Notes under the pieces: generated by a model
Database searches by the model: none
Told to the model about the DNA's origin: nothing
What the model saw: only the letters and a program-made list of their open reading frames with translations
Translations under genes and position numbers: made by a program
Origin: Bacillota bacterium
GTDB lineage: Bacteria > Bacillota > Sulfobacillia > JAJYWN01 > JAJZPE01
NCBI GenBank assembly: GCA_021787335.1
Contig: JAJYMC010000062.1
Coordinates: forward strand, 44,053 to 68,052
Direction of reading: 5' to 3'
DNA length: 24,000 nucleotides
Shown here: one piece after another, positions 12,753-14,419 of the stretch
Position numbering within the stretch: position 1 is the first letter of the stretch
Layout of the letters: each line of letters starts with the position of its first letter

Positions 12753-12943
12753 CGGGGGGCTGGCTGGGAACGTGAAAGCGCTATCGTTTGTCAAGAAATG
12801 ACAAACAGCAGGAGGATTGGGGGGACGGTAGAAACCTGCGGGCCATGGTTTCTCTGCCACTCTCTTGTTAATGCGCCAGCCTGGGTCAACCTGCAACGGG
12901 CAAGGGAGGCAAGAAGCCACACTTAGCAATCCAGGTGAGTGCA

Positions 12944-13345
12944 ATGAAGGCTTTCCCCCCTCCCAGTCCAGAGGAAACTGAAAGGCAGCAAGTTGGATAT
13001 CTTACCGGACAATCCGTTAACCTTCTCGCGCTGCATGACATCAAACCTCGTCCCATTTGGATAGGCCCTAGCAACATCGAGCATATGATGAATGAGCATC
13101 CGGTGGACTTCCGGCGGTTCTTCACCTATATCCCGCTCATACTTCAGGAACCACACTTCATGAGCGTGCGCCCAAGCACTGGAAGCATCGAATACGTTCG
13201 CGTTTTCGATGAATCCCGGCAGGCCGTCTTGGTAGCCGTCCGGGCCAGCAGGAGTGGAGTGCTGTACATTCGGAGCCTCTATGCGATATCTTGGGGGAAG
13301 TTGTCTTCCTATCTAGGGTCTGGTGTCATGAAAACGTACAGGTAA
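12944..13345 (+). CDS. Small protein resembling PBECR (phage-Barnase-EndoU-ColicinE5/D-RelE-like) putative nucleases
   Basis: The pattern NIEHMMNEHPVDFRRFFTYIPLILQEPHFM...SIEYVRVF...AVLVAVRASRSGVLYIRSLYAI matches my memory of this family (I..HI..rHp.d...f..yIp.ii..PDyi ... v.v.v...g..f.rT.y.i). GC is lower than in the flanks. AGGTGA precedes ATG 12944, and GTG 12935 is an alternative start. Confidence 0.5.
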   Translation: MKAFPPPSPEETERQQVGYLTGQSVNLLALHDIKPRPIWIGPSNIEHMMNEHPVDFRRFFTYIPLILQEPHFMSVRPSTGSIEYVRVFDESRQAVLVAVRASRSGVLYIRSLYAISWGKLSSYLGSGVMKTYR

Positions 13346-13367
13346 CGCGACTTTCCGCACTGTCCAC

Positions 13368-13396
13368 TTGGAAGATCGCTTGTTGTGTGCTAGACT
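13368..13396 (+). promoter_or_regulatory. Candidate extended -10 promoter in the non-coding region
   Basis: TTGGAA (13368-13373), 17 nt, TGcTAGACT (13388-13396). The same GTGCTA..A.T context occurs at the SLH gene promoter (13698-13707). Confidence 0.4.
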
Positions 13397-13402
13397 TATC
13401 CA

Positions 13403-13537
13403 TAGACGGGTAAGGATTCGACGAGGGAATCACTAAGGACGGAACAGGCAGCCGTCGCCCCCACTCTGTGGGTTAGGAGATGTAGGCGCCACCTACTAGT
13501 GACTCCCATGAAAAGGGCGCGGCAACGCGCCTTTTTC
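13403..13537 (+). ncRNA. Candidate about 135-nt structured RNA of unknown class
   Basis: No credible ORF or SD on either strand. It is bounded by the promoter-like element above and a GNRA-capped terminator hairpin. Internal hairpins are GATTC/GAATC (13415-13419/13427-13431), GACGG/CCGTC (13439-13443/13452-13456) and CCCAC/GTGGG (13459-13463/13467-13471). Confidence 0.35.
13511..13537. terminator. Bidirectional-looking intrinsic terminator
   Basis: AAAAG-GGCGCG pairs with CGCGCC-TTTTT around the tetraloop GCAA. An A-tract lies upstream and a T-tract downstream. Confidence 0.7.
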
Positions 13538-13653
13538 AATCAACTGCGGCCGCTCCCAGAAAGCAGCTCCCCTCCGGGGTAGTCACTAGTGGAGGGGCGG
13601 TTTTCCGGCCATCAGGGACAAGCCTAACACGAACGCCTGTTCGAGTCAAGAGG

Positions 13654-13697
13654 GGCCGGGAGGTGTGACCCAAATCACACCTATCCCTGCCTTTTTT
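13654..13697 (+). terminator. Strong rho-independent terminator just upstream of the SLH gene promoter
   Basis: Inner stem AGGTGTGA (13661-13668) pairs with TCACACCT (13675-13682). Outer stem GGCCGGG (13654-13660) pairs with CCCTGCC (13685-13691) with one mismatch. TTTTTT follows at 13692-13697. Confidence 0.8.
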
Positions 13698-13698
13698 G

Positions 13699-13707
13699 TG
13701 CTACAAT
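13699..13707 (+). promoter_or_regulatory. Extended -10 promoter element for the SLH/cytochrome genes
   Basis: TGcTACAAT at 13699-13707. It overlaps the track ATG at 13706, which has no SD, so I reject that start. Confidence 0.5.
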
Positions 13708-13744
13708 GGCAGGGGTCAGGGCTGTGACCAGGGGGGTAGGCATC

Positions 13745-14419
13745 GTGCGGTTTGTGAAAGTGGGCGCCATCATCGGCATCGGGCTCATCGCCGCTTTGGC
13801 GGTCGTGGCCACTTTGCCGGCCGCGGCGGCGGCGGCGAAGACCCTGCCCGACGTCAAGGGGCACTGGGCCGAGGAGGCCATCACGGTCCTCGCCGGCAAG
13901 GGCGTCATCGCCGGGTATCCCGATGGGAAGTTCCACCCGGCGGACCCCATCACCCGGGCCCAATACCTCAAACTACTGGTGCTCACCGAGGAGACCGACA
14001 TCTCCATCGGCCTCAAGCCGTCCTTCGCGGACACCGCCGACCACTGGGTCCATCGCCAGGGTTACCTGGAGACGGCCGTCAAGTGGGGGATCATCGTCCC
14101 GAGCGAGTACCCGAACCGCCGCTTCGAGCCGGACAAGGCCATCAGCCGTGAGGAGATGGCCGTCTGGACCGTTCGGGCGTCTTACATGAGCTTGCCCGGC
14201 ACGATCCCCGAGAACAGCCCGCTCAGCTTCAAGGACGCCTCCAAGGTCAGCCCCCCGGCGGTCAAGTACGTCGCCGAAGCGGTCCGCTTGGAACTGATCA
14301 AGGGCCGCCCCGACAACACCTTCGGGCCGGCTGACGGGGCGACCCGCGCCGAGGCGGCGACCATCGTCTTCAGACGCATCGGCCGCGCCCCGACCATCGG
14401 TTGCTTCCAGCACCATTGA
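13745..14419 (+). CDS. Secreted protein with three S-layer homology (SLH) domains
   Basis: Signal peptide MRFVKVGAIIGIGLIAALAVVATLPAAAAAA from GTG 13745, with GGGGGGTAGG upstream. Three SLH repeats: DVKGHWAEEAI..GYPDGKFHPADPITRAQ, FADTADHWV..FEPDKAISREEMA, FKDASKVSPPAVKYV..GRPDNTFGPADGATRAEAA. Confidence 0.9.
   Translation: MRFVKVGAIIGIGLIAALAVVATLPAAAAAAKTLPDVKGHWAEEAITVLAGKGVIAGYPDGKFHPADPITRAQYLKLLVLTEETDISIGLKPSFADTADHWVHRQGYLETAVKWGIIVPSEYPNRRFEPDKAISREEMAVWTVRASYMSLPGTIPENSPLSFKDASKVSPPAVKYVAEAVRLELIKGRPDNTFGPADGATRAEAATIVFRRIGRAPTIGCFQHH

Follow-up and report, generated by a model that had tools for sequence, protein, structure and literature searches.

A skipping-rope RNA gene beside a solo PBECR3 gene in a Bacillota genome: structure, genomic linkage and a possible antitoxin role

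The RNA gene and its immediate surroundings

The window, that is, the whole 24-kb stretch of DNA that was analysed, derives from a MAG of a high-GC Bacillota lineage and carries on its plus strand a small PBECR3 gene followed by a structured feature at 13425–13537, which is almost certainly the gene for a skipping-rope RNA (RF02924). The cassette lies among chromosomal genes with no obvious prophage. A first-pass annotation made from the sequence alone had proposed at this site a non-coding RNA of about 135 nt, located behind a PBECR-type gene, furnished with its own promoter and a clean intrinsic terminator and resembling no RNA family that could be named. The promoter, the sequence box and the terminator that it described are all present, and the locus comprises the following features:

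12944–13345, plus strand: solo PBECR3 gene (133 aa from the probable start ATG 12944; the longest ORF, 136 aa, begins at GTG 12935)
13368–13396, plus strand: promoter-like element, read directly from the sequence
13368–13373, plus strand: −35 box TTGGAA, with a 17-nt spacer to the −10 box
13388–13389 and 13391–13396, plus strand: TG of an extended −10 and −10 box TAGACT
13403–13424, plus strand: predicted 5′ leader of about 22 nt, its start placed near 13403 from the position of the −10 box
13414–13427, plus strand: tmRNA-like box GGATTCGACGAGGG, mostly inside the predicted leader
13425–13507, plus strand: skipping-rope RNA core, P1 extension included
13425–13427 with 13505–13507, plus strand: P1 extension, GGG with CCC, 3 bp
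13428–13435 with 13497–13504, plus strand: P1, 7/8 paired, one A x C mismatch
13438–13442 with 13452–13456, plus strand: P2, 5/5 paired, loop AACAGGCAG at 13443–13451
13458–13464 with 13468–13477, plus strand: P3, with bulge UUA at 13473–13475
13482–13486 with 13492–13496, plus strand: P4, 5/5 paired, loop CGCCA at 13487–13491
13436–13437 (AG), 13457 (G) and 13478–13481 (AGAU), plus strand: junction nucleotides, matching the conserved AG, G and AGAU of the family
G13447–C13490, G13448–C13489 and C13449–G13488, plus strand: pseudoknot between GGC of the P2 loop and GCC of the P4 loop
13511–13537, plus strand: intrinsic terminator, read directly from the sequence and formed in the MFE fold (A4 13511–13514, GGGCGCG 13515–13521, loop GCAA 13522–13525, CGCGCC 13526–13531, T5 13532–13536)

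The promoter-like element agrees with the consensus at 8 of 12 positions and has the TG of an extended −10 in addition; the promoter scan reported nothing here because 8/12 falls under its threshold of 9/12. At the other end, P1 is followed by CCCAUG, which pairs with the leader, and the terminator hairpin, whose stem is capped by a GNRA loop (GCAA), begins 6 nt after the extended P1. The terminator scan listed this hairpin on the minus strand only, probably because the scanner extends the stem into the A/T tracts; on direct reading the plus-strand hairpin with its T5 is plain. The same scan of the window found no terminator between the PBECR3 gene and the RNA, and no tandem repeats were found in 13300–13760. 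The structured and non-coding character of the region was borne out, since the folding energy of the 135-nt stretch is −54.3 kcal/mol (z = −3.3), a value that none of 200 shuffles equalled, and the only ORFs overlapping it are of 22–47 aa with TTG or GTG starts, so that small-protein coding was rejected. The terminator and the last part of the PBECR3 ORF share a similarity of 28 nt, which was taken as chance.

The identity of the RNA follows from a scan of the whole window with Rfam 15 (cmscan), in which RF02924 matched 13428–13504 on the plus strand with 54.0 bits (E 1.7e-10) against a gathering score of 36.7 and over the full model, positions 1–80 of 80. The statement that no family could be assigned thus falls, because RF02924 exceeds its gathering score, a clear Rfam match being one of the outcomes that the annotation itself had named as refuting it, and this above-threshold match to a known family also makes a wholly new RNA family practically impossible. 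The skipping-rope motif was described in the survey of Weinberg et al. (2017), the main text of which presents it without self-cleavage, as seldom found in 5′ UTRs and as having a 3′ Rho-independent terminator among its features (PMC5737381). The same main text reports a "compelling association" with a class of proteins encoded nearby that it does not name (PMC5737381). In the literature searched with the term, no later functional study of skipping-rope RNA was found. In common with the family, the RNA in the window has four stems, the junction nucleotides that the motif conserves, an intrinsic terminator at the 3′ end and a neighbouring gene for a specific class of protein.

Structure, covariation and conservation of the RNA

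The architecture of the family was derived from two collections of sequences. A degenerate DNA pattern search returned 63 viral and 119 genomic stretches containing 99 pattern sites with at least 7/8 pairs in P1, about 93 of which look genuine, and when 71 distinct RNAs were aligned with MAFFT, 90% of the cells paired, with shuffle and slide controls far below. A covariance model, R1, was then built and applied to loci chosen through the protein only, which are redundant in that their 79 matches comprise 36 distinct RNA sequences. Among these 36 RNAs, 96.9% of cells are paired and both partners vary in 20 of the 26 pairs; none of 500 shuffles reached the observed pairing or the observed covariation score. 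The pseudoknot, which joins GGY of the P2 loop to RYC of the P4 loop and was derived here from covariation, is formed in all 36 (three pairs, each 100% paired), its variable pair being CG in 24, UA in 10 and UG in 2 of them. P1 to P4 and the loop–loop pseudoknot are therefore supported by covariation, which extends to all four stems. The several local hairpins of the first-pass annotation do exist, but they are parts of one four-stem junction that includes a pseudoknot rather than separate elements.

Two RNA subtypes can be distinguished, and the RNA in the window, which R1 scores at 63.9 bits, is of the GGCAG/UUAG subtype. The variable parts of skipping-rope RNAs are the P1 stem and the tip of P3, both of them base-paired. 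The window RNA is an additional member of an already catalogued family, slightly unusual in its short P4 loop, which has 5 nt (CGCCA) compared with typically 8–10 nt in the family and still keeps the three bases that form the pseudoknot; at this place the Rfam alignment has a deletion of 4 nt, with low posterior probability. Its leader is also unusually long for a skipping-rope RNA, with 31 nt between the end of the −10 box and P1. At 45 of 79 related sites a separate terminator was found behind the RNA, and in most of the others an extended P1 leads into a U run; the two arrangements go with the subtypes, the separate hairpin with that of the window and the extended P1 plus U run with the other.

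The encoded protein recovered five loci in close relatives (L001–L005), in all of which the order creatininase gene, PBECR3 gene, RNA, SLH gene is kept and RF02924 matches with 54.0–57.5 bits. The PBECR3 proteins of L003–L005 are identical to that of the window over the shared part, and those of L001 and L002 are 83% identical to it. Compared with L001, identity is 98.7% in the RNA core (13428–13504) and 98.8% in the extended core (13425–13507), and it amounts to 87.8% in the PBECR3 coding sequence (82% at third codon positions) and 38–49% in the spacer beyond the terminator. The core thus stands far above both coding and spacer identity, which is evidence for selection acting on the RNA sequence. 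The core differs at a single base, A13429, in place of which L001 has a G that mends the only mismatch in P1. An alternative or antisense pairing of the 3′ strand of P1 (13495–13507) with 13578–13590 was rejected because the downstream arm is unconserved in L001.

Conservation in the flanks bears on the predicted promoter and on the terminator, which are 86% (13368–13396) and 87% (13508–13537) identical between the window and L001; the bases between promoter and box (13397–13413) are identical at 17/17 positions. The −10 box of L001 reads TAGAAT and is nearer to the consensus than TAGACT in the window. Across the family, 47 of 76 sites have a hexamer resembling a −10 box 5–34 nt upstream of P1, compared with 5–17 of 76 in control windows farther upstream, and some of these boxes lie inside the end of the upstream ORF. 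The conservation in L001 and the family-wide excess of −10 hexamers together lend support to a promoter that belongs to the RNA.

The 14-nt box GGAUUCGACGAGGG, which resembles the 5′ part of tmRNA and had been pointed out for that likeness, proved incidental. Five of its 14 bases are different in L001, where the sequence is GCATTTACTGAGGG (9/14 identical, 64%). ARAGORN found no tRNA or tmRNA genes in the window, and a permissive Rfam scan of 13200–13800 gave no match to tmRNA or tRNA models at E <= 10. These scans, together with the low conservation of the box and its position outside the core, refute the idea of a fragment or relative of tmRNA or tRNA, which can be given hardly any credence.

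The PBECR3 protein and its linkage to the RNA

The gene upstream of the RNA was confirmed as a PBECR-type gene, its product matching Pfam PBECR3 (PF18812) at E 4e-13 with 49.7 bits against a gathering score of 30, and PBECR2 (PF18810) at E 4.4e-6. Its start is probably ATG 12944, which is favoured because an SD-like AGGTGA lies at 12932–12937 and because a 133-aa gene is called in L001. Gene and RNA share one strand, the former ending 82 nt upstream of P1 and 79 nt upstream of the extended stem. PBECR3 proteins are marked by a conserved His within the N-terminal helix together with a C-terminal Ser/Thr, and the BECR (RelE/barnase-like) fold to which they are assigned is typical of toxin RNases (PMC5512222). 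In the window protein, the catalytic-type His that is invariant in 33 homologues is kept (H50 in the numbering of the 136-aa ORF; H47 from ATG 12944), as are E86, R89 and the RS motif (RS/ST), and the product is predicted to be a metal-independent endoRNase. An AF2 model (pLDDT 84.8, pTM 0.80) has the RNase toxins BrnT and HigB as its top Foldseek matches in the PDB, none of which reaches E <= 0.001; the best of them, BrnT, is weak (probability 0.96, E 0.03, TM 0.33/0.51). By profile search, no relative of solved structure turned up among PDB sequences, while the same kind of search in public proteins returned 1051 relatives at E <= 1e-5, the best 120 of which are 122–163 aa long. No PADLOC model matches the protein; PHROGs gave one weak match, to a family of unknown function and for a homologue rather than the window protein, and in the search of cultured phages, too, the window protein had no match and a Streptococcus homologue had one weak match.

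The linkage between the two genes was examined from both sides. Starting from the RNA, a PBECR3 homologue was found at 49 of the roughly 93 sites, and in 48 of these 49 it ends 19–263 nt upstream on the same strand. Starting from the protein, with queries taken from the two clades into which the PBECR3 alignment was split and consisting of proteins already found beside the RNA, the RNA was seen close downstream of the gene, on the same strand, in 70 of 74 viral loci, at a spacing of roughly 45–120 nt. The other four are uninformative because their contigs end too soon, 3–110 nt past the gene. All 33 sampled partner proteins match Pfam PBECR3. RNA and solo PBECR3 gene thus form a conserved two-gene cassette, with the nuclease gene immediately upstream and in the same orientation. 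The clade of the protein also agrees with the subtype of the RNA, which could be the simple co-inheritance of neighbours. A direct functional pairing of skipping-rope RNA with PBECR3 is, on balance, quite probable.

So tight an arrangement could also arise if the structure were a cis-acting element in the 3′ UTR of the PBECR3 mRNA, serving as a stabiliser, a processing site or an elaborate terminator. The RNA does lie on the same strand right behind the stop codon, with gaps down to 19 nt, the two are not separated by a terminator in the window, and in one subtype the extended P1 with its U run is itself a terminator. However, −10 boxes are enriched immediately upstream of the RNA, with the promoter conserved between the window and L001, many RNAs occur without an upstream PBECR3 gene, and the conservation of loops and junction far exceeds what a terminator needs, all of which renders the cis-acting reading improbable.

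The RNAs that lack a partner deserve attention of their own. About half of the sites found through the RNA have no PBECR3 gene within 3 kb, which implies that the RNA can work without an adjacent nuclease. At some of these sites the upstream gene on the same strand encodes a ParE/RelE, YoeB, MazF-like or GNAT protein or a reverse transcriptase, and in one group of large phage contigs it encodes an IscB-like RRXRR+HNH protein. In two phage contigs (L017 and L023) an array of tRNA genes on the same strand encloses the RNA, and at eight loci found through the protein (for instance L238 and L213) a second RNA copy of a different subtype follows the first. On phage contigs the cassette adjoins serine recombinase or integrase genes.

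Such orphan RNAs, the copies within tRNA arrays, the second copies of different subtype and the tRNA-like geometry of the junction would all be expected if the RNA acted largely apart from PBECR3, as a tRNA-like decoy or processed RNA that, for example, soaks up the tRNA-targeting nucleases of rivals, its adjacency to PBECR3 reflecting shared carriage in the accessory regions of mobile elements. Yet each of the 70 informative loci reached through the protein has the RNA (70 of 70), in fixed order and orientation and at a spacing of about 45–120 nt, which is far tighter than shared carriage would produce, and in the window the pair stands alone among housekeeping or chromosomal-type genes and is syntenic in the relatives. 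An action apart from PBECR3 is rather improbable on this evidence, though slightly less so than a 3′-UTR element.

Possible function and comparison with known systems

The best explanation overall is that the cassette gene encodes a skipping-rope RNA that is the cognate partner and likely inhibitor of PBECR3, a reading whose chances of being right or wrong we consider about evenly balanced. Under this explanation the RNA would bind the PBECR3 nuclease and hold it inactive in the manner of a type III-like RNA antitoxin, and its own promoter together with read-through from the nuclease gene would provide it in excess. A shut-off of transcription, for example upon phage infection, or loss of the cassette would then free the RNase. 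Characterised members of the fold family of PBECR3 often cut tRNA, and the cloverleaf-like junction with its elbow suggests that the tRNA-shaped RNA may be a pseudo-substrate for the PBECR3 RNase.

The role of the RNA as an inhibitor or antitoxin, taken by itself, we propose tentatively and with slightly less than even confidence. It appears most likely from the toxin-type fold predicted for the partner and the positions in mobile elements, and it is further backed by the orphan RNAs beside other toxins and in phages and by the precedent of abiF. The abiF RNA motif comes from the same 2017 survey and is a type III-like antitoxin that neutralises AbiF by direct binding (PMC12373285). Against the antitoxin model stand the layout, in which the RNA is single and downstream, unlike all characterised type III systems, the absence of PBECR3 within 3 kb of about half of the RNAs, the lack of a PADLOC match for the protein and the RNase-toxin fold match, which is not significant (E 0.03, TM 0.33/0.51).

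The near-obligate linkage and the agreement of clade and subtype would fit equally well if the RNA were a positive cofactor of PBECR3, such as a scaffold, a specificity subunit or a guide that the nuclease needs for finding or cutting its target. The extreme conservation of the junction and pseudoknot nucleotides would suit a cofactor too, and Weinberg et al. (2017) judged the motif complex enough for a "sophisticated biochemical function" (PMC5737381). What speaks against a cofactor is that no variable segment resembling a guide is evident, the variable P1 stem and P3 tip being paired, and that an antidote would better account for RNAs that lack the protein and for the second copies, of another subtype, in L238 and L213. 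The small BECR RNases characterised to date are, moreover, not known to need RNA cofactors, which also counts against this alternative, and we regard it as unlikely, if less so than either an RNA acting apart from the nuclease or a 3′-UTR element.

Returning to the antitoxin reading, the closest known systems are the type III toxin–antitoxin systems (ToxIN, AbiQ, CptIN, TenpIN) and AbiF/RCd22 (PMC12373285), in which, as here, a small protein of endoRNase type is encoded beside a structured, pseudoknotted non-coding RNA. Further likenesses are carriage by mobile elements, an RNA with its own terminator and a plausible excess of the RNA. The layouts differ, however, in that type III antitoxins are tandem repeats upstream of the toxin gene with a terminator in between, whereas here a single RNA of about 80 nt lies downstream, and the toxins differ as well, being ToxN/AbiQ and CptN/TenpN (Abi_2 in AbiF) there and PBECR3/PBECR2 with a predicted BECR fold here. 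With neither the defining layout nor the toxin family of type III in place, the cassette is not a member of that type, though it may work like one. Whether skipping-rope RNA and solo PBECR3 make up an unrecognised class of type III-like RNA-antitoxin or abortive-infection systems is more doubtful. In such a class the tRNA-shaped RNA would neutralise the RNase as a pseudo-substrate, and free-standing RNAs, whether carried by jumbo phages, set in phage tRNA arrays or placed behind genes of other toxins, would be portable antidotes to nucleases of this kind; the class is possible but would have to be called unlikely.

The resemblance to tRNA on which the pseudo-substrate idea draws consists of a four-way junction with linkers of 2, 1, 4 and 0 nt, arms of 5 bp with loops of 8–9 nt, a P1 that runs straight into P4, and a GG of the P2 loop that pairs with pyrimidines of the P4 loop as in the elbow between D-loop and T-loop. 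Unlike tRNA, the RNA has no CCA or discriminator, its P1 is often extended by many base pairs, and its third arm is of variable length with a conserved bulge instead of a 7-nt anticodon loop. The likeness is topological only, and tRNA models fail to match.

The locus itself is ordinary, one more case of a catalogued orphan RNA, and it is the comparative result that matters: in every informative case of this solo PBECR3 clade a skipping-rope RNA lies downstream in fixed order and orientation. An RNA of "unknown function" would thereby gain a concrete two-component hypothesis, a nuclease with an RNA antidote or pseudo-substrate, and if true this would open, for the first time, a functional approach to an orphan Rfam family as well as to an uncharacterised family of phage nucleases.

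The DUF3800-associated RNA motifs and the drum motif of the same survey are likewise complex RNAs that carry a terminator at the 3′ end, and each of them is associated with a single family of poorly understood proteins, as the skipping-rope RNA is here, although their structures and partner proteins differ from those of skipping-rope. A possible relationship among motif-associated genes is noted by Weinberg et al. (2017; PMC5737381), and DUF3800 has been described as RNase H-like (PMC10910872). As a separate observation, the window also contains a DUF3800-VII RNA at 2649–2738 on the minus strand, which scores above its gathering score, is unrelated to the skipping-rope RNA and is convergent with its DUF3800 gene rather than co-directional.

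Skipping-rope RNAs outside the PBECR3 context

At several skipping-rope RNA (Rfam RF02924) loci that lack a gene for the predicted endoRNase PBECR3, the gene directly upstream on the same strand encodes a ParE/RelE, YoeB or PemK/MazF-like protein, a GNAT acetyltransferase or a reverse transcriptase (related loci L129, 3464-3815; L178, 363-723; L027, 6313-6915; L175, 4863-5431; L034, 3913-5125), and these genes 5' of the RNA are toxin or defence-type neighbours. PBECR3 was likewise not detected at the loci of a group of large phage contigs of 113-209 kb (L024, L052, L062, L063 and L066; example, L024 3062-4901), where a flanking stem some 20 bp long carries the RNA at its top and a 515-aa IscB-like protein (RRXRR + HNH) is encoded approximately 210 nt upstream. 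In two further phage contigs the RNA is embedded in a same-strand tRNA gene array, with no PBECR3 gene near it:

L017, 6395-7013: RNA immediately before tRNA-Asn, Met, Gly and Ser
L023, 3825-4272: RNA flanked by tRNA-Gln and tRNA-Met

Duplicated RNAs behind a single PBECR3 gene

Eight loci with one PBECR3 gene carry two skipping-rope RNAs after it, and the copy farther downstream differs from the first in sequence subtype:

L238-L241, L247, L248, L260, 3069-3147: second copy, ~90 nt downstream of the first
L213, 3046-3125: second copy, 29 nt downstream of the first

Surroundings of the RNA in the window

Between the terminator of the skipping-rope RNA and the gene for an SLH-domain protein, the following elements were found:

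13570-13598: hairpin CCCCTCC-N15-GGAGGGG, between terminator and SLH promoter
13663-13681: perfect CRP/FNR-type palindrome, GGTGTGA-CCCAAA-TCACACC, upstream of the SLH-domain gene
13696-13706: extended -10 TGTGCTACAAT, before the SLH-domain gene

The palindrome ends 14 nt upstream of the extended -10, both are kept in the close relative L001, and together they look like a class II activator-dependent promoter. The hairpin retains its stem in L001 with a different loop. In the window the loop is complementary (at 13578-13590) to the 3' strand of P1, the first stem of the RNA (13495-13507), a complementarity that is probably due to chance, since it is not conserved in L001. Chance probably also accounts for a direct similarity (28 nt, 75%; CATGAAAA...GCAACGCG.CTTT) shared by the 3' end of the PBECR3 ORF (13327-13354) and the terminator region (13507-13534).

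Besides the skipping-rope locus, and at a distance of about 10.7 kb from it, the window holds at 1627-2738 a second protein-RNA pair of the kind in the motif survey Weinberg 2017 (PMC5737381), its two members adjoining in convergent orientation:

1627-2646, +: DUF3800 gene (Pfam, E 2.5e-8)
2649-2738, -: DUF3800-VII RNA (Rfam, 75.5 bits vs 36.2)
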